This document shows positions 10,091-49,684 of a stretch of DNA of 49,774 nucleotides, piece after piece (the first letter of the stretch is position 1; each line of letters begins with the position of its first letter). Made by a program: the position numbers and the translations under genes. The notes beneath the pieces were generated by a model. It saw only the letters and a program-made list of their open reading frames with translations. It was not told the origin of the DNA and ran no database searches. Source of the DNA: Paraspadella gotoi. Its lineage: Eukaryota; Animalia; Chaetognatha. Location of the stretch: contig JBJCIZ010000346.1 of NCBI GenBank assembly GCA_051294375.1, positions 1 through 49,774 on the forward strand, read 5' to 3'.

Positions 10091-10097
10091 ATAATTA

Positions 10098-13679: not shown

Positions 13680-14079
13680 TGTAACAATAGGCGCCTAACA
13701 TAGTGGTAACGAGCGGAGAAAGCAGATGGAAAACGATGATCACTTGCTTCCCTAAACATCCCTTACTTTTGCTCTTTACCATTCTCTGGTTCCAGCTCAT
13801 TCTCCGATGGAAGGCCGAATCGTAAACATCGAAAATAATATTTTCTACTATTTCACAAAAATGTAAATATTTAATTAAATATTTATTATTATCATAATTA
13901 TTACTAAACTTAAGAATTAATTAATAAATTAATTCTTCCTTCCATTCTAGGTTTGAACAAATTCCATTGTTCTTATTTTGGAATTCCGCCGAAAATGTAC
14001 TCGTCTTCTAAAATATACCTTGGTAGTTCTACATTTAGTGAATTATATTTAAAGGTATTAATAGTATAGATTAGTTACA
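13680..14079 (+). repeat. 5' LTR (~400 bp) of copy C
   Basis: Starts TGTAAC and ends GTTACA (6-bp terminal inverted repeat, TG..CA rule); homologous to 49088-49517; lies ~400 bp upstream of the gag ATG. The right boundary could extend slightly further. Confidence 0.8.
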
Positions 14080-14204
14080 CATTTTTATATTCAAACATTT
14101 TTTAAGTAAATATTAGTTAATTAGTTAAAATTATTTTAAGCTTTATTTTTTAGGATTATTACTTAAAATTATAAATTTAACAAAAGGTAAACTTTCTTCG
14201 ATAG

Positions 14205-14218
14205 TGGCTCTGCCAACG
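14205..14218 (+). promoter_or_regulatory. Candidate primer-binding site TGGCTCTGCCAACG
   Basis: First TGG downstream of the LTR, but ~125 nt from the inferred LTR end, and no tRNA match could be verified. Confidence 0.25.
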
Positions 14219-20200: not shown

Positions 20201-20885
20201 CACCCAGGGCTTCGGCCCATTCGTTCGAGAACGTCCGTCTCAAAACGCTGGGCGGCGGACAACAAAGCACAAAGTATCGTCACCACTCCGAATATCACTG
20301 CGATCGCACTCGTGTTGTACGCCATTACCGACTACTCCTCACTGCACTACTCACTTATACTGTTCTGGTATGGACTCTTATTCGACGTACCCACAAGTAG
20401 AATATACGAAGAGGAAAACGCGAATCGTCGTCCTACGCCCACACTGCGGCTCCAACAAGAACTCAGATAGGGAGACTTTCTGCTTGGCATCGTTGCCATC
20501 GCGCGCCGATTGCCGGCAGGAATTTGAACAGATCTTTAAATATTCCAAAATTTCCAGTGTTAACAAAAATGGATTTTTATTAATGAAAGAATCAGAACAT
20601 TATTCAAGTGAGATTTCCATCCTTCAGTACTTGATCAAATATGGCAATTGAACAGTTAGAAAACGGAATAAAATTTAATATTTCCACAGGACATTATTCT
20701 GCCCCAACGCCTTGGAAAAGGGGAGAGCAGCAGCCCCCAGGAATTTCAAAAAAATCCGCTCTGCTACGATCGCGAACGCCAAACGCAGAGCCATAAAGAC
20801 TTGCTGAAAAACTCGCGAAAAGATCCAATTTTGAAGAAAGGAGTATTTGCAGACTCATGCNNNNNNNNNNNNNNNNNNNNNNNNN

Positions 20886-21655
20886 TGCTTGAATCTATGG
20901 AGGTTGGTTTTTCAAGCAAATGTGAAATTGAAAATTTATATGGCGAGAACCCCGAATTTTATACTCCCTTGCACATTGTCACACGTCCTGATAAACCAGG
21001 AAAATTCCGCATTTGTCAAGACGCGGCCTCTAAAGTAAGAGGTACTTATCTTAATGAGCACCTGATTGCTGGACCTGATAATTTGACCCCATTATTAGGA
21101 GTTTTAATGAGGTNNNNNNNNNNNNNNNNNNNNNTATCGTCGGACATCAAAGGCTTTTTCCACCAGGTGGAAATTGATCCTGCTGACAGAGGGGCCTTTA
21201 GATTTTTCTGGTATACTGATGAAACCATGACTGATCTTGAAGCTCNNNNNNNNNNNNNNNNNNTATTTGGGGGTTCAGGCAGCCCAGGTGTCGCCAATTG
21301 GGTGATAAAATATCATGCGAAAAAAATTCAAAATGAAATATCTCAAGAAGCTTTTCTCTCCATTTTTTTAGGCCTCTATATGGACGATTTGCTCAATTCT
21401 TTGGACACGCCTGAAGAGGCCAGAAAACTCCGAATTGAACTCACAGACGCCCTGAAGCGCGGCGGATTCGATCTCTGCAAATGGAAATCTTCAGATCCCC
21501 GAGTTTTGGGAGATGAAGTTATTAAAGACGAGGCGCCTCCTCCAATCCACGCGTCGTCAGATGAACTCGTCGACGATCTTGAAAAGATGGCGGAAAACAC
21601 CTTGTCAGAGAATCCTACAGATGAGCACTCAAGTAAGATTTTTGGTGTGGATTAA
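20886..21655 (+). CDS. pol: BEL/Pao reverse transcriptase domain, frameshift-free segment
   Basis: YTPLHIVTRPDKPGKFRICQDAAS, LNEHLIAGPD, SDIKGFFHQV, DRGAFRFFW, FGGSGSP, YMDD (21377-21388), GGFDLCKWKSS. Confidence 0.95.
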
Positions 21656-21736
21656 TACAGAGAAAGACATATTTTTATTAGAATAACAGAAAAAGTTCAA
21701 AAGGAAGCATTAACAAGACGAGATTTTTTAAAATTA

Positions 21737-23108
21737 GTGGCAAGTGTTTATGATCCACTTGGATTCGTGTCTCCCTATATTCTTAAAGGGAGAGCTTATT
21801 TTCAAAAGGCCACTAATGATAACTTGACCTGGGATGATAAAGTTTCTGACGAACTTTTTAAAAAATTTGACAAATGGAGAAAGGAAATGATTCACTTGAA
21901 AAGATTCACCTTTCCTCGCTGGACCTCTATCTTCGGGTCTAGAAGTTGCGAAAACGCAGCTTATCATTTTTTCCGATGCCTCTCTGTTAGGTTACGGAAT
22001 TGTTGCTTATTTAAAAAAGATGAATGCAAATGAAGATGCATGTCACATTTCTCTTTTTTATTCAAAATCCATGTTGTGCCATTGCAAATGCAACGAGTAT
22101 TAATCTCAGGTCAAGAAGATCATCTTGAAAGCATGCCTCGTTTAGAATTAAATGCCGCCAGACTGGCAGCGCCAATCTAGGGATACAATAGTAAGAGAAT
22201 CTGGAGAAGAATTCTCAAGCATTGTCATGTTAACAGATTCGATCACTGTTTTAAACTGGATTAATGACTTCACCAAAAGATTTAAGACTTTTGACACTTC
22301 GACTGAAACTATACGAAATTTATCTCCTATTCAGGAATGGCGCCACGTTCAAGGAACGGAAAATCCCGCGATTTTGCTTCAAGGGGTCTTGACGCTAAAG
22401 ACAAGAAATGGTCAATATTTCATCAAGGTCCAGCATGGCTCGGCGTCCTGAAAGGATGGCCAACTTCAAGTCATCCAGTTAATTCCTCCAAAAACAAAAC
22501 TCCAAAGAGAAAGAACCGGAGGAGATAAATCTATCTGCAATTCATGACGATTGTAGTTATTCACCGTCGAACTCATTGCAATCAACGCCACTCGCGATTA
22601 TCCCATTCTCCCGCCCCGACTCCAAAGACTGGGCAATCAAGATCACTGAGAAAAATCTCAGATTGGCGACAAAAGGTAAGACGCGTCGCCTTTCACAAAA
22701 TGTGTTCCGCTATTTTTAAAATATTTAAAAGAAAAGAAGGAGGGAAAAAAGTTAAAGTTGAAAAAATTATGGCTTATTGATGACTTCAAAAATGCAAGAA
22801 CCAAGTTATATAGAGCGATTCAACGATTCATTTTGATAAAGAATTTTTTTGAGTTATTAAAACTTGGCATTCTATCTCCAAATGCAAAAAGAGAACTCAG
22901 AAACTAAGTTCAAAAAATGATTTCTCTAAGTCCATTTATTGATACTGATCATTGCATTAGAGCCGGAGGGAGACTCAGCAATGCAAGAGATATGAATTAT
23001 GAGGTTAAATATCCTTTAATTCTTCCTAAAAGTGACGAAGTGGTAAATTCCATTATTAGGCATTATCACGAGCAACTGAAACATGCAGGAGCATCTGCGA
23101 CCTTTCAT
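21737..23108 (+). pseudogene. pol: RNase H / connection region and start of integrase in copy C (frameshifted)
   Basis: ASVYDPLGFVSP, FSDAS..GYG, PRLEL, LTDSITVLNWI, WRHVQGTENPA, LSPFID...RAGGRL, KYPLILP, H-x4-H. Confidence 0.9.
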
Positions 23109-31573: not shown

Positions 31574-32437
31574 GTGAGAAATGCTGGAAGAGGATTTAAT
31601 AATAAAAACGTCCTACTTCTGACCTGCATGGGCACAAGAGCTGTAGTTTTTGAAGTTTTAAAAGATATGTCAAGCATGTCATTAATCTCAGCAATCATAA
31701 GATTTAAATCTCGCTTCCCAGGTCTTGAACGACTTATCTCCGATAACGGAACCAATTTCCGTGGTCTCGATAACGAACTGAAGAGACAATTGAAGACGAT
31801 TCGGGAGGACGAAAAATTCTCAGAGTTTATCGCTTCAAACGATATAAGGTGGGATTTTGGGCCTCCACATACCCCTCACTGGGGGGGAGTGTGGGAGAGA
31901 TTAGTAAAAAGTACAAAAAAACACATTACGACATCCTTACCTGAAGAGCCAGACCTTGACACATTTGTTACTATTTTATGTGAAATTTCGGCAATTTTAA
32001 ATAGACGCCCAATTACTCAAGCACCAGCAAATCCAAATGAAATAATAGCTTTAAGTCCAGAAAATTTTTTATATCCTTATTTACATGCTTCAACAGCATT
32101 AACTCTACTTCCTTATACTCCTACAGTTGGTGACTCTCTCCGCGCATCATGGAAAACTGTCCGCGATACTGCAGACAAATTTTGGATTCGCTGGAAAAAG
32201 GAGTATTTAACAACCCTTAGAAGCCGAACGAAATGGACTTCATCCTCAGATCACTTTCAAATCGGGAGCGTGGTTCTCATAGAAGAAGAAAATGTTCCCC
32301 GCGATATTTGGAGAATAGGACGAATTGAAGAACTTCTTGGAGAAGAGAACCACAAGAGAGAAGCGAACGTCAAAATGGCGAACGGAAAAATAATTCGACG
32401 CCATGTGACTTCTCTCATTCATCTTGAGGTCGATTGA
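31574..32437 (+). CDS. pol: BEL/Pao integrase core and C-terminal domain, intact frame to the stop codon
   Basis: LLTCMGTRAVVFEV, ISDNGTNFRG, PHWGGVWERLVKSTK, LNRRP, FWIRWKKEYL..L..RTKW, GSVVLI, W.IGRI, RHVTSLIHLE. Confidence 0.95.
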   Translation: MRNAGRGFNNKNVLLLTCMGTRAVVFEVLKDMSSMSLISAIIRFKSRFPGLERLISDNGTNFRGLDNELKRQLKTIREDEKFSEFIASNDIRWDFGPPHTPHWGGVWERLVKSTKKHITTSLPEEPDLDTFVTILCEISAILNRRPITQAPANPNEIIALSPENFLYPYLHASTALTLLPYTPTVGDSLRASWKTVRDTADKFWIRWKKEYLTTLRSRTKWTSSSDHFQIGSVVLIEEENVPRDIWRIGRIEELLGEENHKREANVKMANGKIIRRHVTSLIHLEVD

Positions 32438-32767
32438 GTTACTCGTCATAATCAAGAGACATTTAGAATTTGAATTTGTGGGAGAAAAGTTTCTACCTTA
32501 TATTTCCTATTACTGTCAGTTACTTTTCTTATTTCAAAAACCATAAATTATTTAAAATACATCATTTATTAATTATATTAATAACACAATTGGGAACAAA
32601 CATATTGAATCATTGATAAATTTTACACATGTTCATTTGACATTTATCTTGGTTGATAAAAACTATTGTTCAAAAAACGATTCAATAGTAAACATTGAAA
32701 CGAGCACTCATCTATTTCAATTAAATTATTTTATTGAATTTCTTCTTATTAACCTCACCAGATGAAC

Positions 32768-34623
32768 CTATTTCAAGAGCAATTGATAGTATGTCAACAG
32801 AGCTTCAATTGTACTTACCTCCTGCCTTTGGATATATATCTTTTGTTTGGTCCCGTCATTTCCTTACTTGGTTCTGCATATATGTTACCATTTGCCACCT
32901 ATTAAACATAAATGTGATTATAAAAAAATCACAACTCTGTAGTGCATCTTTGACTAGAATGCCCAAATGCTCTCTTCTCATCTCATTAAGATAGTCCACG
33001 CTGATTACTTGATGTTAAATTATTGTCAAACGAGTCACTGATGAAGAGAACAATTAGAAAATAATAAAAATTAGACCTATTTGCATTTAATCATCTGGCC
33101 AAGCATTCCGCGATTTCGTTTCTGTAACCTGAACAAAAGAGAAATTAAAATATTCAAACGATTCTACCCTTTTACCTTTAAAATTGTTTGATCTCATCCA
33201 TGATGAGTGAGTTCATTGACTTAGTGATCATTGAACGGGAAGTCACGAGCCCACCATCGTCTCCATCAAATCGCGAAGTCCTCGTCGCGCCGTCGAGTTC
33301 CGCGTCGATCCGAAAGCTCAAAGATGACGATATCATTGAGGTGATCGAAGTGAAGACGTGGGCGCCGCCTGAGTCAAGCTCGTCGAATCCGAGGACGATC
33401 TGTCCATAGTCCTAACGAAAATCCAATTCCGTGACGACGAAATCCAATTTCGTGACGACAATCCAAATCCGCGACAATAATGATAAGCAATCCCATGGTG
33501 ATCCGAAGTCTTACCTGGCAACGATCCTCACAAATGCTCTGAATGAAACGACGATTCCTTTGATAGCCGCTGAAGATCCCGAAAGAAACTAAATAAAAGA
33601 TTAAAAAATTAGTAACATTGAAATCGAAAACTTACCTGTTTGTAACGGAACCGGATTGTGGTATTATTTTTTTTTTTTAAAGTAAAAAACTATTAACATT
33701 GCAATACATAACCAATGTATACCTATGTATTTTTGTAACTTACCTTCTCTCATCACACATCAAAGCAAAATCTTTCAGACTATGCACGTGAAAATATTTT
33801 TTTTGGCTACCCACTTACCTCGAAGATTTTCTCTTGAGGAGATAAGAAGCGGGAAGATGCACTGGTCCTGCAGATCCAAAATTATTAAACAGCTTCTTAA
33901 ATGAAACCTCAAAGCGTGGACATTTAATTATGATTCCTCAAAATTGAAAAAGAAAAACTGGAAAATTTTTATTATTGCTATTGTTATTGCATAATTTGTC
34001 ATTCATTGTCCATCTTGTTCAGTTTGTTATGGAAATATCTGAATAACAATATTGGAGGCAGTGGGTTCGTGGGCACTCACAACTCACTTATATTCAAGGA
34101 CTCGTATATAAATGAAATCAACTACCGAAAACCCAACTCCGCGTAAGAAACTCTCGAACAGATCGATTGCAGCCATCGAGAGATTTGATGGGAAAAAAAT
34201 TAACATTGAATCCGGAAAAACGGATCCAGTTCAAGGACGAAAACCTTATCTCGCACCTTGGGCAAAATATAAAAACTATGCAAAATGCCTCTGCAAGATT
34301 ATGAAAGAATTAATCATCTTTAAAATATGTATTGCTTTATTCATGTCTCTGTTTGGCCATTGTTTGGTTGATGTCTATTATTTATTGAATCAACTCACCA
34401 CTTACCTTTTCCAGGAGTCATTCCAAAAATAAAGTGCGATTGCACTCAATTCAAACTTTAATCTGCGATCTTTCACGAACTCAAAATTCATCCAGTTTAT
34501 CACGGCTTAAACTCAAATTAAATTCAACAAACGGCCAATTCGCGGTTCCATCGACTTCTTAGGTGAGATCCAAATCAAACTTACCTGAAAATAAAAGGAT
34601 TATTATGAAACATTTATACTTAC
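32768..34623 (-). other. Putative antisense multi-intron transcription unit inside the element (copy D; homologues ~2870-4660 on + and ~43405-44860 on -)
   Basis: Minus-strand GT-AG intron candidates 34585-34623, 34291-34405, 34039-34087, 33780-33818, 33690-33743, 33589-33635 and 32768-32818; donors GTAAGT/GTGAGT; TACTAAC branch motif in the copy-E homologue (43984-43990). Confidence 0.65.
33188..33566 (+). CDS. Small acidic/Ser-rich hypothetical ORF (~125 aa across indels) with IQFRDDE repeats
   Basis: ORF 33188-33409 joins the copy-E ORF 43734-43946; in-frame 21-nt repeat. The opposite strand is also largely open, so the strand is uncertain. Confidence 0.35.
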
Positions 34624-34627
34624 CAGG

Positions 34628-35012
34628 ATGATGAACAACCACGACCTCATGTGGAATAACGTTGAGCAATTGAATCTCTCTCTTGACATTGAGGGCGATG
34701 AGTTTGCTTCCATATTTTCAGCAAACTCTCTCCATGAAGTCCTAGACTGTGCCGACCCAAACGATGTGGCCGGGTTCAACCGCCAGGACCCGCTGAACCT
34801 GAACATTCCCATTCCTCCCCTTATGGATCAGCCGGAAGTAAGTGAAAATCCAATGAAATTTATTACTTTGGTTACACACAATTCACTTACCCAACATATT
34901 TAATTCAGCCAACTTTCCACGAGCGACAACCTTCCGCCAAAAACACGCTTGAAGACTCCACTTCCGATGAAGGAACCCTACCCTACGAAGTTCCACCTAC
35001 CCCCAAAACTCC
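34628..35012 (+). CDS. Accessory ORF3, exon 1 (34628-34837) and start of exon 2 (from 34909) in copy D
   Basis: Removing the phase-0 intron GTAAGT...TTCAG (34838-34908) joins MMNNHDLMW...LMDQPE in frame to PTFHERQPSAKNTLEDSTSDEGTLPYEVPPTPKTP. Confidence 0.7.
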
Positions 35013-35592
35013 TCCATCTTTATGCTTCTTTTTTCGAAAAGAAGACGGACGGACTTCTTCGCTTTTCGCACTTTTTTCCGTTTCGGCTGCGACGTTGATA
35101 CGGGAAGAGGATACCAAACGGAACTGCTCAGAAGATCGACAACGAGGATTTTGAAGAGGGTCTTTAACAATACATTGACGTTTCGTCCTTTGTCGTCGTC
35201 GTCCGTTGGCATTGCCGTGAAGGAATATGGGAGGAGGGGGACAGTTTTCATCTTGATAATCACTCGGGTTGACGATGAGGCCCGAAATGATTGAAGACGA
35301 AAAACGAACGAAATCGATGCCGCCGTCTCTTTGCAACGCGGGGCCAGTTTTTACGACACGTCTATGATCATTCGTCGCCACCCTCACGAAGAGGGTTACG
35401 TCGGGACGAAATTTCCATTAAGTCCAGAAGTTCCGAAACGATGAACCGGAATTTTTCCTCGTTGGAGTAAGCGAGGAGACTTAAATGGTTGTTACAGTTT
35501 GATGTGTCGATTTTCCAATCAACGCATCGGGAATTGGAGGAAGCTCCGCGTACTCGGAAGGTCGGAAAGGAATCGTGCTTTTAGGTTGGGCG
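35013..35592 (-). repeat. Inverted ~580-bp piece of ORF3
   Basis: Reverse complement of ~45316-45872; abuts a 100-N gap. Confidence 0.9.
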
Positions 35593-38462
35593 NNNNNNNN
35601 NNNNNNNNNNNNNNNNNNNNNNNNNNNNNNNNNNNNNNNNNNNNNNNNNNNNNNNNNNNNNNNNNNNNNNNNNNNNNNNNNNNNNNNNNNNNCTTTTTCT
35701 CCTGTTTTGTCCCCAATTGTTCCTGCAGTTATTAATGAAATACAACCCAACTGTGATATGATTAAAACTTATTCAAAACAAAATAACATAGTTATTGAAA
35801 ACACCTCTCCTGTGGTATATACTAGTCCAGCAGTGGCATTACCAGTTATATCTTCAACCGTAAATCAGTCTCATTTGCCACAATCTGTTCAATCGTCATA
35901 TGTTGGTTTACCTGTATCTTTACCCTCTTTGGAACAGTCAAATCAGTTATTATTAATTTTACAAGCCTTATCTCAAGCTTGTTCGTCATTATTTCCGCCC
36001 ATTCCGAATCCGCTTCCGCCGGTAGTACCGCCGTCCGCGCCGCCGGCACCGTCGGAAAATCCCGTAGCTTCTCCGATCATTTCATCCGCAGCAGCACCTC
36101 CGACGGGCGCCGCAGCAGCCCCGCCGTTTCTGTCGTCGGGTCATCAAATCACGGTCGAATCTACAATCGCCGAAAAACCGTGGATCACAACTTCCCTTAC
36201 CCCGATCCACCTCCCTTCCCCCCTCCATAAAGTAAAAGGATCCATCTGAAAATCAGGTTTTTAAGAAAAAAATTAAAATCTAAAAATAAACCTGTTTTGA
36301 ATAAAATTATCGATGATCCTCCTCACCTTAGCGACGACGACGAATCCATCTGTTCCGACGAACCCTCGTCTGGATCCATCGCGATACCGGCGACTGAGGA
36401 CAATCCATTGATTCAGCTGTGCTTCATTCAATCTCAGCACAATGCCTTTCTCTGATGCGTCAAAAACGCCCAAAGACGAATTTTCTGAAGGACAGGCGAG
36501 TAGATTTTGACGCTCAGTTAGCTTTATTCATATACTTTTATAGCATTCCAGGCATTACTAACGAAATGCTGGTTGCTGAAATGCGTGAGTACTTTTCTGG
36601 TGATGCCTAATTATCATACAACAATATGAATTAGGCCGCGATTATGCCCGCTCTTTAAAAAAGATTAAGAAAGCTTAAAAGTTCAGTTTGGCAGAAAAAG
36701 TTATACTGCACGTCATTTACTTGATAATTTACTAAAGGCCCGAAAATAAGCAGCAGAGAATTCTGCAAGCCTTAAGACTTTTATACTTGAGTTAGAAAAG
36801 ATATACCTTAAAGCCAAAGAAACAAATAGGGAAAAAACTTTGCTACTCAAGAGATTTATACGAAATATTATCCAAAAAAGCTCCTCATCTTGGCTAATGC
36901 TTTGGGCAAAACGTGCAGTAAAGAAAAAAATGGAATGGTTAGAACGAGAGACTGATGACGAGGATGACGAAACTGATTTAGATCCGACTTTTGAATCCTT
37001 TATTAAATTTTTAAAATATACTGCAGAAATCGCCGAAATGGGCACATCTACGCGGGAATCAGCTCCTCAAACGACAGACCTTAAACTCGGATCCCTAGCC
37101 ATGTCAACGCCAAAACCCCATCGAAATCTTTTCCCGTTCACTTTGCGCGGTATGCAAAACCAGCAAAATGTGTCGGTCTCAGAGACTTCCAACGACTCAA
37201 CAAATACAAACCCTGCTCCGAGATTTCCGCATCAAACGCGAATCCAATGACACATGCCCCAAGAAGCTTGTCAACATCATCATGTTTCATGTGTGGAAGC
37301 AATCATTACATTGAAACCTGTCGAAAATATCTCAACATGGAAATGGAAAAAGGTGGGATTATATAAAGAAACAAAATTTTATGCCATTGCTGCTTGAGAA
37401 AAGGCATGTAACAAGAGATTGCAAAAGCTTGTTGGGATGTAGACAATGCGCAGGGCGATCTACGTCTCCTTCATGCAGAGACTCCGGTGCCGTCGTCTTC
37501 CTCTGACTCGCNNNNNNNNNNNNNNNNNNNNNNNNNNNNNNNNNNNNNNNNNNNNNNNNNNNNNNNNNNNNNNNNNNNNNNNNNNNNNNNNNNNNNNNNN
37601 NNNNNNNNNNNNNNNNNNNNNNNNNNNNNNNNNNNNNNNNNNNNNNNNNNNNNNNNNNNNNNNNNNNNNNNNNNNNNNNNNNNNNNNNNNNNNNNNNNNN
37701 NNNNNNNNNNNNNNNNNNNNNNNNNNNNNNNNNNNNNNNNNNNNNNNNNNNNNNNNNNNNNNNNNNNNNNNNNNNNNNNNNNNNNNNNNNNNNNNNNNNN
37801 NNNNNNNNNNNNNNNNNNNNNNNNNNNNNNNNNNNNNNNNNNNNNNNNNNNNNNNNNNNNNNNNNNNNNNNNNNNNNNNNNNNNNNNNNNNNNNNNNNNN
37901 NNNNNNNNNNNNNNNNNNNNNNNNNNNNNNNNNNNNNNNNNNNNNNNNNNNNNNNNNNNNNNNNNNNNNNNNNNNNNNNNNNNNNNNNNNNNNNNNNNNN
38001 NNNNNNNNNNNNNNNNNNNNNNNNNNNNNNNNNNNNNNNNNNNNNNNNNNNNNNNNNNNNNNNNNNNNNNNNNNNNNNNNNNNNNNNNNNNNNNNNNNNN
38101 NNNNNNNNNNNNNNNNNNNNNNNNNNNNNNNNNNNNNNGAAAAAACTTTGCTACTCAAGAGATTTATACAGAAATATTATCCAAAAAAGCTCCTCATCTG
38201 GCTAATGCTTGGGCAAAACGTGCAGTAAAGAAAAAAATGGAATGGTTTAGAACGAAGAGCTGATGACGAGGATGACGAAACGATTTAGATCCGACTTTTG
38301 AATCCTTTATTAAATTTTTAAAATATACTGCAGAAATCGCCGAAATGGGCAGCATCTACGCGGGAATCAGCTCCTCAAACGACAGACCTTCAAACTCGGA
38401 TCCCGTAGCCATGTCAACGCCAAAACCCCATCGAAATCTTTTCCCGTTCACTTTGCCGGCGG

Positions 38463-38825
38463 TTGCAGCAAAACCAGCAAAAATGTGTCGGTCTCAGAGA
38501 CTTCCAACGACTAACAAATACAAACCCTGCTCCGAGATTTCCGCATCCAAACGCGAATCCAATGACACATGCCCCAAGAAAGCTTGTCACATCATCATGT
38601 TTCATGTGTGGAAGCAATCATTACATTGAAACCTGTCGAAAATATCTCAACATGGAAATGGAAAAAAGGTGGGATTATATAAAGAAACAAAATTTATGCC
38701 ATTGCTGCTTGAGAAAAGGACATGTAACAAGAGATTGCAAAAGCTTGTTGGGATGTAGACAATGCGCAGGGCGTCATCACGTCTCTCTTCATGCAGAGAC
38801 TCCGGTGCCGTCGTCTTCCTCTTGA
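38463..38825 (+). CDS. gag: Gag nucleocapsid with three Cys/His knuckles
   Basis: CFMCGSNHYIETC (CX2CX3HX4C), CHCCLRKGHVTRDC (CX2CX4HX4C) and CRQCAGRHHVSLH, the triple-knuckle pattern diagnostic of BEL/Pao. Confidence 0.95.
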   Translation: MQQNQQKCVGLRDFQRLTNTNPAPRFPHPNANPMTHAPRKLVTSSCFMCGSNHYIETCRKYLNMEMEKRWDYIKKQNLCHCCLRKGHVTRDCKSLLGCRQCAGRHHVSLHAETPVPSSSS

Positions 38826-38849
38826 CTCGCAGCAGCGTACGCCGCTACC

Positions 38850-39345
38850 GGGACTTTCCGTCCAATTGTTCCTGTAGTTGTAATAAATGAAAGCAGGAAG
38901 GTAGTGACGTATGCTCTACTTGATAGTGGTGCTACCCGCTCTGCTATATCAACAAATATTTGTAAATAAATTAAAGTTAAATCCCTACACTCTTTATACC
39001 AACTTAACTACTTATGACTCTGTATCTCATACTTGGCGAGATTTTGTTGATATTGAAATTAGAAATTTAAATGACGATTATTCCCGTAAAAATGAATAAA
39101 GTTATTGTTGGAATATTTTAACTACGAAAATGTATAGCCAACAAAGAATAAGATATTGAGGATTATTGATTATATGAAAGATGTTAAATTTGTTGAACTT
39201 CCTAATGAAGAAATTAATATTATTTTAGATGCAAGCTTGGCCTCCGCCTGGGTCGGCGGATCGCGATCGACTCGTGTTGGACCCAACGGATTCCCTACTG
39301 CACTACTCACTTCGTTTGGTTGGACTCTTATTGGACCAAGTGAAA
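38850..39345 (+). CDS. pol: Aspartic protease domain (frameshifted)
   Basis: VTYALLDSGATRS (DSG at 38922-38930), then INIILDA and TALLTSFGWTLIGP. Confidence 0.9.
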
Positions 39346-42300
39346 ACGGATGTCAACAAGATCAGATAAATTGTCTTGACATCGCGCCATCGGAAATTGA
39401 AGATTTAAATATTCAAATTTCCAGGTTAACAAAAATGGATTTTTTAATGAAAGAATCAGAACATTATTCAAGTGAGATTTCCCATCCTTCAGTACTTGAT
39501 CAATATGCAATTGAACAGTTAGAAAACGGAATAAAATTTAATATTTCCACAGGACATTATTCTGCCCCAACGCCTTGGAAAAAGGGGAGAGCAGCAGCCG
39601 CCAAGGAATTTCAAAAAATCCGCTCTGCTACGATCGCGAACGCCAAACGCAGAGCCATAAAGACTGCTGAAAAACTCGCGGAGAGTAGATCGCGACTGGT
39701 TGGTGCAGAGATCAGAGGAGATTTGAGACTATGCTTGAATCTATGGAGGTTGTTTTTCAAGCAAATGTGAAATTGAAAATTTATATTGGCGAGAACCCGA
39801 ATTTTATACTCCTTGCACATGTCACACGTCCTGATAAACAGGAAAATTCGGCATTTGTCAAGACGGCGGCCTCTAAAGTAAGAGAGCTTCTTTCTTAATG
39901 AGCACCTGATTGCTGGGACCTGATAATTTGACCCCATTATTAGGAGTTTTAATGAGGTTTCGTAGAAAAATGGTGACACGTTAGTCGTTCGGACATCAAA
40001 GGCTTTTTCCACCAGGGTGGAAATTGACCCTGCTGACAGAGGGCCTTTAGATTTTTTCTGGTATACTGATGAAACGATGACTGTATCTTGAAGCTCACCA
40101 TTACTCCAATGTGCATATATTTGGGGGTTCAGAGCAGCCCAGGTTCGCTTAATGGTTGATAAAGTACTCACAGACTTGTTAGATTCAGCGAAAAAAATTC
40201 AAAATGAAATATCTCAAGAAGCTTTTCTCTCATTCATTTATTTTAGGCCTCTATATGGACGATTTGCTTCAATTCTTTGGACACGCCTGAAGAGGCTAAA
40301 AAAACTCCGAATTTGAACTCACAGACGCCCTGAAGCGCGGCGGATTCGATCTCTGCAAATGGAAATCTTCAGATCCCCGAGTTTTGGAGATGAAGTTATT
40401 AAAGACGAGGCGCCTCCTCCAATCAACGGTACGTCGTCAGATGAACTCGTCGACGATCTTGAAAAGATGGCGGAAAAACACCTTTTCAGAGAATCCTACA
40501 GATGAGCACTCAAGTAAGATTTTGGGTGTTGGATTCAATACAGAGAAAGACGTATTTTTTATTAGAATAACAGAAAAAGTTCAAAAGGAGCATTAACAAG
40601 ACGAGATTTTTTAAAATTAGTGGCAAGTGTTTATGATCCACTTGGATTCGTGTCTCCCTATATTCTTAAAGGGAGAGCTTATTTTCAAAAGGCCACTAAT
40701 GATAACTTGACCTGGGATGATAAAGTTTCTGACGAACTTTTTAAAAGATTTGACAAATGGAGAAAGGAAATGATTTCACTTGAAAAGATTCACCTTTCCC
40801 TCGCTGGACCTCTATCTCGGGTCTAGAAGTTGCGAAAACGCAGCTTATCATTTTTTCCTGCCGAGCTTCTGCCTCTGCTGTTAGGTTACGGAATTGTTGC
40901 TTATTTAAAAAGTATGAATGCAAATGAAGATAGCATGTCACATTTCTTTTTTTTATTTAAAATCCCATGTTTTGTGCATTGCAAATGCAACGAGTATTTA
41001 TCTCAGGTCAAGAAGATCATCTGAAAGCTTATGCCTCGTTTAGAATTAAATGCCGCCAGACTGGCAGCCCAATCTAGGGATACAATAGTAAGAGAATCTG
41101 GAGAAGAATTCTCAAGCATTGTCATGTTAACAGATTCGATCACTGTTTTAAACTGGATTAATGACTTCACCAAAAGATTTAAGACTTTTGAGCACTTCCG
41201 ACTGAAAACTATACGAAATTTATCTCCTATTCAGGAATGGCGCCACGTTCAAGGAACGGAAAATCCCGCCGATTTTGCTTCAAGGGGTCTTGACGCTAAA
41301 GACAAGAAATGGTCAATATTTCTATCAAGGTCCAGCATGGCTTCGGCGTCCTGAAAGCGAATGGCCAACTTCAAGTCATCCAGTTAATTCCTCCAAAACA
41401 AAACTCCAAAAGAGAAAGAACCGGAGGAGATAAATCTATCTGCAATTCATGACGATTGTAGTTATTCACCGATCGAACTCATTGCAATCAACGCCATCGC
41501 GATTATCCATTCTCCCGCCCTCCGACTCCAAGACTGGCAATCAAGATCACTGAGAAAATCTCAGATTGGCGACAAAAGGTAAGACGCGTCGCCTATTTCA
41601 CAAAATGTGTTCCGCTATTTTTTAAAATATTTAAAAGAAAAGAAGGAGGGAAAAAAGGTTAAAGTTGAAAAATATTATGCTTACTGTTGATGAACTTCAA
41701 AAATGCAAGAACCAAGTTATATAGAGCGATTCAACGATTTCATTTTGATAAAGAATTTTTTTGAGTTAAAACTTGGCATTCTATCTCCAAATGCAAAAAG
41801 AGAACTCAGAACTAAAAGTTCAAAAATGATTTCTCTAAGTCCATTTATTGATACGGATCATTGCATTAGAGCCGGAGGGAGACTCAGCAATGCAAAGATA
41901 TGATATTATGAGGGTTAAATATCCTTTTAATTCTCTAAAAGTGACGAAGTGGTAAATTCCATTATTAGGCATTATATCACGAGCAACTGAAACTGGGCAG
42001 AGCATCTGCGACCTTTCATTCTTTAAACCAATCTTTTGCATTATTAGGTGGAAGATCAAGTGTCGACAACATCGTGAGGAAAATGCGTTAATGCCAAAAG
42101 GCTCACAAGAAACCGACACCACAACACGATGATCGGATCTTTCCTAGAATTTCGGGTTCAAAGTCACCATCCCATTTCGTACGACCGGAATCGATTGCTT
42201 GGTCCATACAGGGTGAGAAATGCTGGAAGAGGATTTAATATAAAAAACGTCCTACTTCTGACCTGCATGGGCACAAGAGCTGTAGTTTTTGAAGTTTTAA

Positions 42301-43076
42301 AAGATATGTCAAGCATGTCATTAATCTCAGCAATCATAAGATTTAAATCTCGCTTCCCAGTCTTAGAACGACTTATCTCCGATAACGGAACCAATTTCCG
42401 TGGTCTCGATAACGAACTGAAAGAGACAATTGAAGACGATTCGGGAGGACGAAAAATTCTCAGAGTTTATCGCTTCAAACGATATAAGGTGGGATTTTGG
42501 GCCTCCACATACCCCTCACTGGGGGGAGTGTGGAGAGATTAGTAAAAATGTACAAAAAAACACATTACGACATCCTTACCTGAAGAGCCAGACCTTGACA
42601 CATTTGTTACTATTTTATGTGAAATTTCGGCAATTTTAAATAGACGCCCAATTACTCAAGCACCAGCAAATCCAAATGAAATAATAGCTTAAGTCCAGAA
42701 AATTTTTTATATCCTTATTTACATGCTTCAACAGCATTAACTCTACTTCCTTATACTCCTACAGTTGGTGACTCTCTCCGCGCATCATGGAAAACTGTCC
42801 GCGATACTGCAGACAAATTTTGGATTGCTGGAAAAAGAGTATTTAACAACCCTTAGAAGCCGAAACGAAATGGACTTCATCCTCAGATCACTTTCAAATC
42901 GGGAGCGTGGTTCTCATAGAAGAAGAAAAATTGTTCCCCGCGATATTTGGAGAATAGGACGAATTGAAGAACTTCTTGGAGAAGAGAACCACAAGAGAGA
43001 AGCGAACGTCAAAATGGCGAACGGAAAAATAATTCGACGCCTGTGACTTCTCTCATTCATCTTGAAGGTCGATTGA
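39345..43076 (+). pseudogene. pol: RT-RNase H-integrase of copy E (many single-base indels)
   Basis: YMDD 40252-40263; ASVYDPLG; MPRLELNAA...TDSITVLNWI...ENPADFASRG (41031-41354); SDNGTNFRG; stop near 43076. Confidence 0.9.
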
Positions 43077-43809
43077 GTTACTCTCATAATCAAGAGACAT
43101 TTAGAATTTGAATTTTTGTGGGAGAAAAGTTTCTACCTTATATTTCCTATTACTGTCAGTATTTTCTTATTTCAAAACCATAAATTATTTAAATACATCA
43201 TTTATTAAATTAATATAATACACAATTTGGGAACAAACATATTGAATCATTGATAAATTTTACACATGTTCATTTGACATTTATCTTGGTTGATAAAAAC
43301 TATTGTTCAAAAAAACGATTCAATAGTAAACATTGAAACGAGCACTCATCTATTTCAATTAAAATTATTTTATTGAATTTCTTCTTATTAACCTCACCAA
43401 GATGAACCTATTTCAAAGAGCAATTGATAGTATGTCAACTAGAGCTTCAATTGTACTTACCTCCTGCCTTTGGAAATATTATCTTTTGTTTGGTCCAGCG
43501 TCATGTTCCGTTACTAATGTTCTGTCATACTGTTCATCCATTTGCGTAGCCTATTTGAAAACATAAAATGTGATTAATAAAAAAAAAATCACAATCCTGT
43601 AGTGCATCTTTGACAGAGTGCCCAAACGGTTTCTTTTTTTTTTTTATGGCCGGCGAAGGTAGACTCGTCGCCGCCGTCGAGTTCCGCGTCGATTCGAAAG
43701 TCAAAGATGACGATATCATTGAGGTGATCCGAAGTGAAGACGTGGGCGCCGCCTGAGTCAAGCTTGTCCGAATCCGAGGACGATCTGTCCATAGTCCTAA
43801 ACAAATCCA

Positions 43810-43860
43810 AAATCCAATTCCGTGACGACGAAATCCAATTTCGTGACGACGAAATCCAAT
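43810..43860 (+). repeat. 21-nt tandem repeat, ~2.5 copies (AAATCCAATTYCGTGACGACG)
   Basis: Seen directly; also at ~33418-33470 and inverted at ~4206-4270. Confidence 0.9.
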
Positions 43861-44938
43861 CCGCGACAAGCAATCCCATGGGATCCGAAGTCTTACTGGC
43901 AACGATCCTCACAAATGCTCTGAATGAAACGACGATCCCTTTTTGATAGCCGCCTGAAGATCCCGAAAGAACACTAAATAAAAGTTAGTAACATTGAAAT
44001 CGAAAACTTACCTGTTTGTAACGGAACCGGAATTGTGGTATTATTTTTTTTTAAAGTAAAAAACTATTAACATTGCAATACATAACCAATGTATACCTAT
44101 GTATTGTTGTAACTTACCTTCTCTCATCACACATCAAAGCAAAATCTTTCAGACTATGCACGTGAAAATATTTTTTTTGGCTACCCACTTACCTCGAAGA
44201 TTCTCTTGAGGAGATAAGAAGCGGAAGATGCCTGGTCCTGCAGATCCAAAATTAATTAAACAGCTTCTTAATGTGAAACCTCAAAGCGTGGACATTTAAT
44301 TATGATTCCTCAAAATTGAAAAAGAAAAACTGGAAAATTTTATTATTGCTATTGTTATTGCATAATTTGTCATTCATTGTCCATCTTGTTCATTTGTTAT
44401 GGAAATTATCTGAATAACAATATGGAGGCAGTGGGTTCGTGGGCACTCAAACTCACTTATATTCAAGGACTCGTATATAAATGAAATCAACTACCGAAAA
44501 CCCAACTCCGCGTAAGAAACTCTCGAAAGATCGATTGCAGCCATCGAGAGATTTGATGGGAAAAAAAGTTAACATTGAATCCGGAAAAACGGAATCCATC
44601 AAGGACGAAACCTTAATCTCGCACCTTGGCAAAATATAAAAACTATGCAAAATGCCTCTGCAAGATTATGAAAGAATTAATCATCTTTAAAATAGTATTG
44701 CTTTATTCATTGTCTCTGTTTGGCCATTGTTTGTTGATGTCTATTATTATTGAATCAACTCACCACTTACCTTTTCCAGGAGTCATTCCAAAATAAAGTG
44801 CATTGCACTCAATTCAAACTTTAATCTGCGATCTTCACGAATTCAAAAAAAATATTCATCGTTTATCACGGCTTAAACTCAAATTAAATTCACAAACGGC
44901 CAATTCGCAGCGTTCCAAAATCAATGAACTTTCTTAGG

Positions 44939-46337
44939 ATGATGAACAACCAGCGACCTCATGTGGAATAACGTTGAGCAATTGAATCTCTCTCTTGACA
45001 TTGAGGCGATGAGTTTGCTTCCATATTTCAGCAAACTCTGCTCCATGAAGTCCTAGACTGTGCCGACCCAAACGATTGTGGCGGTTCAACCGCCAAGACC
45101 CGCTGAACCTGAACATTCCCATTCCTCCCCTTATGGATCAGCCGAAGTAAGTGAAAATCCAATGAAATTTTTACTTTGGTTACCACAAATTCACTTACCC
45201 AACATATTTATCAGCAACTTTCCACGAGCGACAACCTTCCGCAAAACACCGCTTGAAGACTCCACTTCCGATGAAGGAACCCTACCCTACGAAGTTCCAC
45301 CTACCCCCAAAACTCCGCCCACTAAGCACGATTCCTTCCGACCTTCCGAGTACGCGGGAGCTTCCTCAATCCCGATGCGTGATGGAAAAATCGACACTCA
45401 AACTGTAACAACCATTTAAGTCTCCTGCTTACTCCAACGAGAAAATTCCCGTTCATCGTCGAACTTCTGACGAATGGAAAATTTCGTCCCGACGTCCCTC
45501 TTCGTGGCAGGGTGGGACGAATGATCAAGACGTGTCGTAAAAACTGGCGGCCGCGTTGCAAAGAACGCGGCATCGATTTCGCTCGTTTTCGTCTTCAATC
45601 ATTTCGGCCTCATCGTCAACGCCGAGTGATTATCAAGATGAAAACTGTCCCCTCCTCCCAATTATCACGGCAATGCCAACCGGACGACGACGACAAAGAC
45701 GAAACGTAATGTCATTGTCAAAGGGACCTCTCTGTCAAAATCCTCGTCATCGATCTCTGAAGCAGTTCCGTTGGTATCCTCTTCCCGTATCAACGTCGCA
45801 GCCGAAACGGAAAAGTCGAAAAGCGAAGAAGTCCGTCGTCTTCTTTTCGAAAAAGAAGCATTAAAGATGGAGCGAGACAAGTACAAGATGATAGCCGCGA
45901 GGTATGAGAAAGACTTGGCGCTTGAAAAACGTCTTCGTGAAAAAGATCGTGACCGTTTTGAAGAAAAGATGCAGAAAATGCGCCAGGATTCAGATAAACG
46001 CATCGACCGCCTCAAAGAAACTCACCTGTATGAGATCCGGAGTTTGTGTGAAGCACTTTGCGCTGCTTCTCTCCAATCAGTTGATCCATCTTCATTGGCG
46101 TCGAAAAGTAAGAAAGATGCTGTCCGCGAATCTACAAAAGTGCCCTCTCAAAGTGCATCGTTCAAAGTAAATAAAAACCCGGCTGATAATGCTCGTCCCC
46201 ACTTACCTCCCTTCAACCCCCCTCCCCACCTTCCAACACCTGGCAAAATCCCCCCTGCCAATCCCCTCCCCCCGAAAAGTCCAAAAAAAATATTAATCCG
46301 CGATTATTGTACTTATTTACAAAATATTTATCGCTGA
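44939..46337 (+). CDS. Accessory ORF3 (~440 aa after splicing and indel correction): acidic N-terminus, central compact domain, coiled coil, Pro-rich tail; function unknown
   Basis: Fragments 45060-45419, 45556-45864 and the clean 188-aa ORF 45771-46337 (EEVRRLLFEKEALKMERDKYKMIAARYEKDLALEKRLREK...PPFNPPPHLPTPGKIPP); intron ~45146-45214; present in four copies. Confidence 0.7.
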
Positions 46338-46487
46338 ACAATCTTTATCGTCAGTTTATTGATTTGTATAATAAACAATCAAATTTTTTATCTACTCTGA
46401 CGAAAATATTTATACTTACCTTTTACAGTCTGTAAATTAATTATACTCACCCTTTACATTCCATAAATTAATAAAAATCTTCTTCTT

Positions 46488-48200
46488 GACTCAATTTCAA
46501 TCACAGTTTATCATGAGCTTAAACTCAATTATTACCGGCCTTTCGCGGTTCCTCTATGCATAGTGGTGGTACCAAAATCAAACTTACGCTGAAATAAAAG
46601 GTATTATTATGAAACATTTATACTTGACCAGTGATGATGAACAACCACGACTCTGTGATAACGTTGAGCAATTGATCTCTCTACTTGCATTTGAGAGAGG
46701 GCGATGAGTTTGCTTCCCATATTTGTCAGCAAAACTCATCTCCATAGCAAGTCCTAGCTGTGCGACCCAATTTACGATGTGGCCGGGTTCATCACCCGCC
46801 AGGACTCTCGGTCTGAACCTGAAACATTCCCATTCCTCCCCTTAAATGGAGATCCAGCGTGAAGGATAATGCCAATGGAAATTTATTCTTTTGGTTACAT
46901 CACAATTCAGCTGTATCGTCCATACATATTTAATCGTCAGGAGAGCGCCAACTTTCGCACTGAAGCGACACTTCCCCAAAAACACGCTATGAAGACATCA
47001 TCCGCTTTGAAGGATCCCTATCTCTACGATTACAGTTCCACCTACGCCCAAACGACCCTCCCCAGCCCTAACACCGATGTCCTTCCACCTTCCATTACGG
47101 GTACGGGACTTCCTCCAATCCACGATGCGTGAGGAAAAAATCGACACACTCAAACTGTAACAACCATTTAAGTCTCCTTGCTTACTCCAACGAGAAAATT
47201 CCGTTCATCGCGGAAATTCTGACGAATGGAAATTTCGTCCCGACGTCCCTTTCTTCGTCGGGTGGGACGAATGATCAGAGACTGTGTCGTAAAAAACTGC
47301 GCCGCGTTGCAAAGAGGCCGCGGCATCGATTTCGTCGTTTCGTCTTCAATCATTTCTGGCCTCATCGTCAACCCGAGTGATTATCAAGTTGAAAACTGTC
47401 CCTCCTCCCAATTATCACGGCAATGCCAACCGGACGACGACGACAAAGACGAGAACGTAATGTCATTGTCAAAGGGCCTCTCTGTCAATCTCGTCTATCG
47501 ATCTCTGAAGCAGTTCCGTTTGGTATCCTCTTTCCGGTATACACGGCTCGACGCCGAAACGGAAAAGTCGAATAAAGGCGAAGAAGTCGTCGTCTTCCTT
47601 TCGAAAATAAGCATTTAAGATGGGAGCGAGACAAGTACAAGATGATAGGCGCGAGGTATGAGAAAGACTTGGCGCTTGGAAAAACATCTTCGGTGAAAAG
47701 ATCGTGACCCGTTTTGAAGAAAAGATGCAGAAAATGCGCCAGGATTTCAGATAAACGCATCGACCGCCTCAAAGAAACTCACTGATATGAGATCGCGAGA
47801 GTTTGTGTGAAGCACTTTGCGCTGACTTCTCTCCAATCAGTTTGATCCATCTTCAATTGGCGTTGAGGTAAGAATGCTGTCCGCGAATCTACAAAAGTGC
47901 CCTCTCAATAAAGTGCAATCGTTCAAAGTAAATAAAAACCCGGCTGATAATGCTCGTCCCTACTTACCGTCCTTTCCCCTCCCACCTCCAACACCTGGCA
48001 AAATCCCGCCAAATCCCCTCCTCCCGAAAAGTCCAAAAAAAATATTAATCAGACGATTATTGTGCTTTTTTACAAAATTTATTTTGTGAATCAATCTTTA
48101 TCGTCAGTTTATTTGATTGTTTTACTTTTATGTCTACGTCTGGAAATTTATACTTACTCTTTTACAGTTGTTTTTTCTCACCCTTTACTTCTAGTTAATT
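46488..48200 (+). repeat. Tandem, noisier second copy of the ORF3 unit (44840-46470)
   Basis: Collinear from cagtttatca..gcttaaactcaa through ctcaccctttac. Confidence 0.9.
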
Positions 48201-48429
48201 CTTCATTCTGTATCATGAATCTCCACTGTTGCTGTAAATAAATTTACTCACTTGTCTTGGATTTTAAATAAATGATTACTTTGGCTATATTTGTTGTTTT
48301 ACACAATCTTTTTCAAATATAATTGATATGCGAGAAAGAAATTCAACTTAAATCTAGCTCCTTCATTACCCCAACATGGGGTAGGAGCAATATTACCCCT
48401 CTTTTAAGTCTGACCCCCAGACCCTAAAA

Positions 48430-48900
48430 TAAAATCTTTTCAACGACCGTTTGCTGCGCGAAAATAAGATCTCAAATTTGCACGTGCCTCGAATCTAAAG
48501 TCAAACGAGAACGCCGTGTTTCATGGCGTACCGGAAAGACGAGCAGCACTTTACATCAGTTCCCGAAAGAGATACCGGAAAAGCTCGTTGTTGCTGAAGC
48601 GCGAACGAGGCCGGAAAACGGGGGCGGGCGGTCGCGGAAGGTATGGGGGCTGCCCGGGCGGCAGCGGACGGTCAGGGCACACGGCGGGCCGGCAGTCGGT
48701 TGCCCGGGCCGGGCTGCCCAAAGGCGGGCTGGCGAGAAAGTGCGGGGATCGGATCGTTCAACGGGATATCAAATGGAATGCGCGGCGCTTTGATTGGCGG
48801 CACGTCGAGGTGCCAGGATCAAAAACAGGGATTGGGGATGCTGCAGGGACGATCATTGCGTCCGCTTGATGCGTGGGAGTTATTGCAGGCATTTGGGAAA
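48430..48900. promoter_or_regulatory. GC/CpG-rich island upstream of the PPT; candidate internal promoter
   Basis: Sharp GC rise; GGGGCGGGCGG at ~48621; ATTGG (CCAAT on minus) at 48793 and 48831. Single noisy copy only. Confidence 0.3.
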
Positions 48901-49073
48901 TGCAAGTAACCCTTGTGGGATGGGGGGCAGCTGTAAAAGGAGAAATCAATGAAATGCCTACGCTTAAGACGATGACGCAAGCTTGAAATGATCCTTAGAC
49001 TGTCACGCACTATGTGCTGCCGCTTTCTTTAATTGGGGCAAACCTGGACATATGAGTATTTACAATGTTTCCC

Positions 49074-49086
49074 AAAGGTGGGCAGG
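49074..49086 (+). promoter_or_regulatory. Polypurine tract AAAGGTGGGCAGG
   Basis: Purine-rich run directly before the LTR start and absent before the 13680 LTR. Confidence 0.7.
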
Positions 49087-49087
49087 T

Positions 49088-49517
49088 TGGTAACACAATA
49101 GGCCGCTAACATGAGTTGGTACCGAGCGAGAAGCAGCATGGAACCGCATTGAGTCAATTGCTTCCCTAACACATAACCCTTTCTTTGCACTCTTTACCAT
49201 TCTCGGTGGTTCCAGCTCATTCTCCGATGGATAGACGAATCGTTAAACATCGGAAATAATAATTTTTCTCACTATTTTCACAAAAATGTAAATGTATTTA
49301 ATTAAATATTTATTATTTCATAATGTATTATAACTTAAGAATTAATTAATAAAATTAAATTCCTTTCTATCCATTCTATGGGGGTTGAACAAATTGCCAT
49401 TGTTCTTTATTTTGAATTCCGCCGAAATGTACTCGTGCTTTCTAAAGATATACCTTTTGTAGTTCTACCATTTAGTGAATTATATTTAAGCGGTATTAAT
49501 AGTATAGATTAGTTACA
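49088..49517 (+). repeat. 3' LTR of copy E
   Basis: Homologous to 13680-14079 (e.g. ggttccagctcattctccgatgga, gaattccgccgaaa, gtattaatagtatagattagttaca); preceded by the PPT. Confidence 0.8.
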
Positions 49518-49684
49518 TTTTATAATTCCTTCTATTTTAACGTCTTTAAACGTATCTTTTTAACTTTTACTGCTTTTACTTATACTTTTAATTATTTTTC
49601 GGGGTTTNNNNNNNNNNNNNNNNNNNNNNNNNTTTTAACTTATTTTTTAACTCATATCTTTTTATACCAGTTTATCAAATTTTT

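Follow-up and report, generated by a model that had tools for sequence, protein, structure and literature searches.

Why does a BEL/Pao retrotransposon of a chaetognath carry more than 4 kb of additional DNA behind its integrase, and what could this DNA encode? The question is raised by a stretch of 49,774 nucleotides (nt) from Paraspadella gotoi (GCA_051294375.1, contig JBJCIZ010000346.1, positions 1 to 49,774; here called the window), in which eight to nine overlapping partial copies of one such element were found by self-comparison. The copies are referred to as tiles, and their coordinates are given in table 1 together with those of the other features. The region between the integrase stop and the long terminal repeat (LTR) on the 3' side, called the cassette, contains a predicted spliced open reading frame (ORF3) on the sense strand and an array of splice-donor motifs on the antisense strand. 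The first-pass annotation had described it as a non-envelope (non-env) accessory region with spliced units on both strands. This observation was partly confirmed: a non-env cassette with splice signals on both strands is supported, and its interpretation is supported in part.

The cassette and the element that carries it

The same non-pol region follows the integrase stop in tile D (32435-32437), tile E (~43076) and tile B (~4990, minus strand), as had been annotated. Summed over the tiles, the distance from the integrase stop to the LTR is 4.3-4.6 kb and the element measures ~13.2 kb, in agreement with the earlier estimates of ~4.5 and ~13 kb. BEL/Pao elements are usually 4.2-10 kb long and carry gag-pol, rarely env (PMC3118150).

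The integrase-plus-cassette stretch was present in nine sequencing runs from three studies, which were compared as short-read contigs (the runs are named X1 etc.). Contigs of X1, X5 and X7 run through the integrase stop and on into the cassette, and the depths of integrase and cassette, which are a rough guide and no true copy number, were 65 versus 55 (plus 19.6 for a long form) in X1, 29 versus 21 in X5, and 13.7 versus 13.2–13.8 in X7. The cassette is real, since short-read contigs of three studies cross into it from the integrase at similar depth. No cassette-less junction at the integrase stop was seen among the joints and loose ends listed, and a search for terminal repeats, which would mark the cassette as a nested element, found none.

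Two forms of the cassette were detected, the X1 depths of 19.6 and 55 belonging to the long form (with 32976-33280) and the short form, respectively. At the short-form junction (43625-43650; 4415-4450) there is a T-run, i.e. an antisense poly(A) without an AATAAA just upstream on that strand, plus a new ATG. This junction could mark a recombination with polyadenylated RNA.

Tile E, which had been annotated as running to the polypurine tract (PPT) and the LTR, itself ends at 46457; a second, overlapping tile (E2, 46489-49524), of which 1.7 kb are repeated sequence, does reach them. Two pieces of the cassette tail (48491-48590 and 48703-48888) occur at element-like depth in X5 (35 and 48). The interior depth in X1 (55-68) is roughly two-fold that of a long flank contig (6541 nt, depth 28), which continues past the LTR end into other sequence. 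Depth in the stretch ahead of the PPT (49021-49069) exceeds that of the interior 2.5-4 times and reaches 577 in X1 at the 3' end of the LTR (49469-49521), suggesting solo LTRs or derivative elements with these ends.

We consider it probable that the cassette is LTR-enclosed cargo of a BEL/Pao family. Several observations weigh against this, apart from the rough nature of contig depth. The link from the cassette to the PPT and 3' LTR consists of one noisy tile plus depth, and no contig or accurate read bridges it (gaps at ~46470-48490 and 48890-49020). Other elements may share the 3' end. A target site duplication (TSD) was not found, as the bases before 13680 are not repeated after the 3' LTR, the tiles being possibly from different loci. 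Of the enclosure by LTRs with a TSD that the first-pass annotation had named as a check, that one tile shows the cassette tail running into the PPT and LTR.

The element itself is a true BEL/Pao (Belpaoviridae) LTR retrotransposon, with the domain order gag, protease, reverse transcriptase (RT), RNase H and integrase. Pfam detected RVT_1 (E value 4.9e-8, in 20672-21652) and Peptidase_A17 (7.3e-17, in 21656-22030 of tile F; also at 40566-40823 in tile E), and the RT motif is YMDD. The integrase spacing is DD(50)E; an expanded spacing of DD(45-53)E is known for BEL/Pao, which is found in animals only (PMC554778). A triple Cys-His box was recognized by eye in Gag, in a frame of 138 amino acids (aa; 38409-38825) without Pfam match, and the protease motif LLDSG lies near 38920.

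A single gag-pol ORF is typical of BEL/Pao. In the window the gag-pol junction falls in noisy tiles, and the three nearest relatives have the protease motif at most 25 aa from their start, a sequence-level hint of a separate pol ORF in this clade. These relatives (P0002, P0004, P0005; 1317-1415 aa) begin with the protease, the gag domain DUF1759 being absent. The integrases nearest to the query, from metagenome assemblies, show 40-49% identity. A quick tree, computed from 60 of the 120 listed proteins plus six loci and without labelled reference elements (Pao, Sinbad, BEL, Tas, Suzu, Flow, Dan), placed the query with them in a 10-row clade (SH-aLRT 97).

LTRs of BEL/Pao elements measure 0.2-1.2 kb and have TG...CA ends. 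The 5' LTR matches 49095-49524 at 2.5% substitutions plus read-type indels, and the LTR ends form a 6-bp terminal inverted repeat, the two LTRs lying on different tiles and the 3' end being uncertain. At the LTR starts (13680 and ~49088) the upstream contexts part at the TG, one of them being the contig-backed purine tract. No clear tRNA primer-binding site (PBS) was found beside the 5' LTR: no TGG directly follows 14079, and TGG-like sites lie 20 nt inside the LTR and near 14205 (noisy tile). A 20-nt LTR followed by a PBS at ~13703 was rejected, since both LTR tiles match over ~400 nt and contigs at 49190-49521 are mostly deeper than the interior. The element is likely low-copy, and a viral contig search gave no relative.

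Splice signals and reading frames on the two strands

On the antisense strand of the cassette, the donor motif GTRAGT was observed 11 times in tile D versus 1.10 expected (0/300 shuffles) and 12 times in tile E versus 1.20 expected. The controls gave none in gag, three in pol versus 1.31 (40/300 shuffles) and two in the flank versus 1.36. The motif G/GTRAG occurs 15 times in 3.7 kb of cassette versus four times in 7.3 kb of gag-pol tiles, and an exon-side AG precedes the GT in 10 of the 14 listed antisense donors. When post-integrase DNA of 42 of the 77 related loci was checked for donors, none had more than five in up to 4.6 kb.

The antisense donors run through ORF3, and therefore the two units overlap throughout. 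They had been thought to meet or overlap only around 34490-34900, an idea that was abandoned as donors span 32818 to 46419 and 48251. Of the oppositely oriented multi-intron unit annotated earlier, the donors stand; neither an antisense ORF nor an enrichment of acceptors could be shown. The longest stop-free antisense pieces are at most 118 aa, none of the 71 antisense fragments of at least 24 aa had a Pfam match, and no long conserved antisense ORF after pol, of the TRP28 kind, was found. X9, a run merely guessed to be RNA, contained no splice joint among the rows listed, which says nothing on expression. On the minus strand, 34584-34623 forms a clean 39-nt GT-AG intron that ends right in the next donor, resembling a recursive splice site.

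The sense spliced ORF3 of the first-pass annotation was recovered as a predicted ORF with a GT-AG intron. Exon 1 contains no stop (3.0 expected) and has the top composition score of the six frames; the same holds for the last 231 codons in tile E (0 stops versus 11.3 expected). The predicted intron has an AT content of 0.72 versus 0.47–0.50 in its surroundings, and its removal takes out an in-frame stop and leaves the open frames on either side connected in phase 0. By coordinates ORF3 comprises ~445 codons, if it is continuous over 45322-45642, where every tile is broken by noise.

A helix spanning residues 50-145 of the tile E piece was obtained by structure prediction, with a pLDDT of 92-98 over residues 61-140. 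When nine pieces were scored for env features (~35-40 ORF3 codons from 45322 to where the tile G piece starts being left out), no transmembrane (TM) segment (maximum KD19 1.05), N-terminal hydrophobic leader or furin site and few Cys were seen in the ORF3 pieces. A viral fold search gave 0/17 at E ≤ 0.001. These results are consistent with the non-env nature of the cassette that had been proposed. An Atlas search had a best value of 0.79 and no usable match, and a profile of distant BEL/Pao ORF3s matched the ORF3 middle piece with a probability of 0.3%. Three marginal matches (E 8e-4 to 6e-3) were obtained when 213 six-frame fragments were compared with the 77 loci and the fetched proteins. 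Near the ORF3 3' end (46188-46231), X7 matches tile E through 46469, and X1, X4, X5 and X6 match the Pro-rich tail partly and then diverge; by sequence, this tail seems more variable than pol.

A second sense frame, sORF-A, is preceded by an ATG in both cassette forms (at ~43646 in the short form), and its two large indels between tiles D and E are 6 and 9 nt long. ORF3 and sORF-A are likely orphan sense protein genes. Two further frames were not accepted: a 106-codon TM frame (34112-34432), in which both other reads have an indel relative to D at two positions, and a 47-codon frame (32762-32905), which contains positions where two other reads show indels versus D.

Table 1. Features of the window, ordered from the cassette outwards
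Feature	Position	Strand	Remarks
Cassette 5' half, long form, tile D	32438..35012	+	X1 contigs 31573-32967 (depth 65), 32938-33270 (19.6), 33485-35012 (55)
Long-form-only segment	32976..33280	+	in tiles E and B replaced by T-run plus ATG
sORF-A	33200..33592	+	~110-130 codons (likely), acidic, Ser/Pro-rich, no TM; frame broken in D near 33383
ORF3 exon 1	34628..34837	+	70 codons, acidic; acceptor-like AG precedes ATG
Predicted sense intron	34838..34908	+	71 nt, GT-AG; holds in-frame stop
ORF3 exon 2 start, tile D	34909..35012	+	open frame 0; 35012 joined to 45322 in a contig
ORF3 exon 2 rest, tile E	45322..46337	+	231 open codons after 45642, up to which read noise breaks the frame; 96-residue helix, Pro-rich tail
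Antisense donors, tile D	32818, 33514, 33635, 33743, 33818, 34087, 34405, 34584, 34623, 34890	-	motif count
Antisense donors in or just after ORF3	46025, 46206, 46419, 46450	-	last two within 31-nt repeat
Antisense donor in cassette 3' tail	48251	-	noisy tile
Cassette 3' tail	48189..49073	+	one noisy tile only; contigs cover 48491-48590, 48703-48888, 49021-49069
Polypurine tract	49074..49087	+	X5 and X6 contigs pass from purine tract directly into LTR start
3' LTR	49088..49521	+	match to 5' LTR; contigs
5' LTR	13680..14090	+	~400-410 nt; starts TGTAAC, GTTACA at 14074-14079; 3' end uncertain by ~15 nt
Integrase core and C-terminus, tile D	31574..32437	+	open frame; DUF5641 E 3.2e-22, rve E 4.5e-4 below cut-off
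Tile B	2460..10099	-	gag end, pol, integrase, 5' cassette part (short form); noisy
Tile F	14091..23107	+	leader, gag (very noisy middle), pol with RT YMDD, RNase H
Tile G	35012..35580	-	inverted copy of 45324-45872; assembly artefact
Tile H	35693..37511	+	gag middle and C-terminus
Tile E	38139..46457	+	gag triple Cys-His box, protease LLDSG, pol, integrase, short-form cassette
Tile E2, first part	46489..48188	+	noisy repeat of cassette sequence present in D and E

A possible function and its alternatives

The cassette may be an accessory, self-regulating module made up of the sense-spliced ORF3 and an antisense multi-intron RNA; for this full functional reading we see an even balance of chances. 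The spliced sense mRNA would be translated into a soluble helical regulator (ORF3), and the antisense RNA would tune the expression or silencing of the element. Introns of an antisense unit are not removed from the sense genomic RNA during retrotransposition, and a sense intron should be lost. The antisense introns would persist, the genomic RNA being the opposite strand, on which they are never spliced.

For the single sense intron, a predicted 9-bp stem that sequesters its donor may be what keeps it in the genome. The donor at 34838 and positions 34882-34890 share 9 nt of complementarity; the latter are the complement of the antisense donor within the same intron, 45 nt downstream. The stem is present in both the minimum-energy and the centroid fold, with a pair probability of 0.6-0.99 in D and ~0.77 in E. 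Such masking of the donor would leave much of the genomic RNA unspliced. ORF3 would then be expressed from a subgenomic RNA whose splicing uses the acceptor-like AG directly in front of the ORF3 ATG; donor-like sites are located at 14187 and 14312 (6 and 7 of 9). By analogy with Cer1 CERV and Cer9 SDG-1, ORF3 would most likely be nuclear and act in the export or silencing of element RNA.

A more far-reaching version, which we regard as unlikely, is a complex BEL/Pao lineage with interlocked two-strand genes: a Rev-like or anti-silencing sense protein, an intron that outlasts reverse transcription through the pairing of its donor with the complement of an antisense donor, an overlapping, controlling antisense RNA with at least 13 introns, and new accessory start codons born by recombination inside the cassette.

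A number of results weigh against the functional module. Splicing and expression of both units are read from the DNA sequence, and the regulatory or anti-silencing role would follow from analogy alone. On the antisense strand acceptors are not enriched (TTTYAG 1 versus 3.68 expected), the AT excess after the donors is weak (9/13; 350/5000 permutations), and the donor pair 34623/34584 would enclose a zero-length exon. The stem does not give its region an exceptional stability (z -0.45 and -1.32). In no single copy is ORF3 open over its whole length, its reading frames were picked after inspection, and frame 1 of the short exon-2 start is likewise open. Homology searches were negative for the helix piece (0 matches among 1.84 billion representatives), the middle piece (14 candidates, none at E ≤ 1) and exon 1 (no candidates).

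The cassette might instead be passenger cargo: the element would have picked up a host gene in antisense orientation, which would explain the survival of its introns; the sense frames would be later or accidental overprints, and the element would draw no benefit. Such a capture predicts donors on the minus strand only, several donor-to-AG spans (39-57 nt, AT-rich) resemble small introns, and the short form lacks an antisense acceptor and exon without visible cost. However, the 71 antisense fragments contain no recognizable Pfam domain, the sense frames over ORF3 are open and outscore the antisense frames, an ATG stands ahead of sORF-A in both forms, and no separate diverged host paralogue was seen among the contig matches listed, so that we give this explanation a minor chance. 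If, on the other hand, the ACTTACC motifs act on the sense RNA, as mimics of the U1 small nuclear RNA 5' end, branch-point-like sites or donor-masking partners, no antisense transcript is needed. The lack of acceptor enrichment on the minus strand, the predicted pairing of one motif with the sense donor, and the position of several motifs shortly upstream of sense-strand AGs are consistent with this, but 10 of 14 motifs have the exon-side AG of real donors and the cassette contains only one strong sense donor to mask, making a purely sense-strand role improbable.

That the cassette is single-locus host or foreign DNA (a flank, or an insertion into one copy) multiplied by misassembly would fit a window misassembled from raw reads, a cassette-LTR link in one noisy tile without TSD, and two forms that could be alleles in a pooled sample. 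Against it stand the missing cassette-less integrase-stop junction among the joints and loose ends listed, the X1 interior depth of about twice that of the long flank contig, and the fact that the tile ending in the PPT and LTR starts in mid-cassette. With contigs of three studies crossing the integrase stop at matching depth, a misassembled host flank, which the first-pass annotation had offered as a refutation, is quite unlikely. Least probable of the alternatives, and very surprising, would be that the cassette serves spread between cells by encoding a divergent envelope or a small fusogen, of an env-like or FAST/sORF2-like type. Its position after pol, the long ORF3 helix, the hydrophobic 106-codon frame as read in D (KD19 2.23) and the occurrence of such proteins in other retrotransposons (10.1101/2025.03.14.642691, PMC13524379) speak for it. 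The ORF3 pieces, however, show none of the env features or viral folds searched for, the 106-codon frame is likely a read artefact, and in that frame the basic region stands before and not after the hydrophobic stretch, unlike in FAST/sORF2 proteins.

Structure of the window and relation to known systems

The tiles differ from each other in the manner of sequencing reads. In all 16 pairwise alignments of copies the substitutions were 0-2.5%, mostly without transition excess, and indel events, mostly of one base, amounted to 3.6-11.5 per 100 nt (21 in one poor stretch). Because low substitutions with many one-base indels are the error profile of raw long reads, the window is likely a gap-filled stack of raw long reads of one element family, with N runs of 18-25, 100 and 627 between tiles in places. 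Subfamilies within the window, as which the copies had first been regarded, were therefore rejected; the stretch at 18085-19095, at first sight a 70% subfamily, differs by 2.15% substitutions, with one side showing 142 insertion events. As the copies are read tiles of one family, dN/dS between subfamilies has no object here. Tile D is ~99% accurate versus the contigs over most of its length. As a caution, gap-filled scaffolds can imitate subfamilies of transposable elements and small TM ORFs.

The inversion at 35012-35580 is an assembly artefact, because a short-read contig links 35012 straight to 45322 and lacks the inverted piece. The repeat at 46489-48188 is likely an unmerged assembly overlap. 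A GC-rich island (48440-48900) was not accepted as a promoter; a contig skips 147 nt of the window there. The segments 28400-31080 and 10800-11300 are noisy, mostly GC-richer and unrelated to the element; judged by eye we take them to be a minus-strand non-LTR retrotransposon, of which seven fragments had no Pfam match at E ≤ 0.01. At 31014-31060 an X1 contig depth of 637 indicates a high-copy repeat. Two satellites with a unit of ~18-19 nt (23107-23588 and 49662-49757) adjoin element tiles, and the latter is very abundant in all four runs compared. No tRNA gene was found in the window, and the three Rfam matches were all far below the gathering score.

The nearest integrases (P0001-P0008 and L001) offer little for comparison, since post-integrase DNA is available only as 460 nt of L001, without GTRAGT on either strand. 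Extra or antisense predicted genes are said to be mentioned in early Cer papers. In the literature searched, neither this family nor a BEL/Pao antisense unit with several introns is described; Repbase and Dfam were outside the search, and a prior description is possible.

The earlier statement that extra ORFs in BEL/Pao are mostly env-like is incomplete, given the non-env genes of Cer8 and Cer9 discussed below and nine distant BEL/Pao loci (L035, L040, L041, L043, L044, L046, L049, L050, L051) with a sense post-integrase ORF of 585-983 aa, which may point to a non-env ORF3 family conserved within BEL/Pao. No Pfam match was found in the five of these ORFs that were scanned. Judged by eye, those of L041 and L049 resemble a DEDDy-type exonuclease followed by Cys-His knuckles, which was not confirmed (no PDB match, fold pLDDT 32). 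In L056, two tandem BEL/Pao units leave ~1.6 kb between the integrase and the next gag, with a 159-aa ORF without Pfam match. Env-bearing BEL/Pao elements (Tas, Cer7, roo and mosquito elements with a chuvirus glycoprotein) also have an extra ORF between integrase and 3' LTR (PMC554778, PMC13524379), but the ORF3 pieces have no TM segment, leader, furin site or Cys-rich ectodomain. The sORF2 fusogens of retrotransposons are a further analogue (10.1101/2025.03.14.642691), and Cer19 carries an expressed ORF2 (PMC7084138).

Among Gypsy elements, the plant retrotransposons Retand, Grande and RIRE2 have antisense ORFs between pol and 3' LTR that are thought to be regulatory, the pol-to-LTR region of Retand being 2.9-6.6 kb long (PMC11963269, PMC7264820). 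They share with our element a long pol-to-LTR region with antisense features, but theirs are long antisense ORFs, whereas here antisense donors occur without a long ORF and the open frames are sense. The ORF3s of bdelloid rotifer elements are another analogue (PMC5408684, PMC6431247): the Gypsy-like Juno and Vesta possess a family-specific non-env ORF3 after pol with DEDDy, GDSL, coiled-coil or TM types (PMC5408684). They belong to another superfamily, and in that text, where intron does not occur and antisense occurs once, for small RNAs, there is no sign of a spliced or antisense unit. The functional model for ORF3 was borrowed from CERV of Cer1 (Gypsy/Ty3, C. elegans), an accessory protein made from a spliced mRNA and needed to export the unspliced genomic RNA (PMC10309623). 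It is likewise from another superfamily, no homology was shown, and no antisense unit is mentioned in the abstract.

The closest parallel in organisation is with Cer8 and Cer9, oversized C. elegans BEL/Pao elements (9.5-19.8 kb, reaching 11.5-19.8 kb; PMC4367959) placed among the Pao-like elements (PMC554778). They carry several non-env genes (sdg-1, ZK262.8, ZK228.1, EGAP798.1, ZC411.1), of which sdg-1 is translated, and its product SDG-1 lacks homologues outside the species and plays a minor role in RNA silencing (PMC13277809, PMC11793870). The P. gotoi element is likewise an oversized BEL/Pao with likely non-env orphan genes, but no sequence link to Cer8 or Cer9 was shown, its ORF3 pieces having no homologue in the protein collections. 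With its 13 kb, orphan genes and splice signals on two strands, a BEL/Pao element of this clade would carry the resident-regulator pattern of Cer8 and Cer9 beyond C. elegans. It would also allow a direct test of how a sense-strand intron persists in an element that replicates through RNA, for which the predicted masking of the donor by a stem proposes a specific answer that can be checked. The general idea is precedented in Cer8 and Cer9; what surprises is the array of donors, together with the stem predicted to mask a donor.

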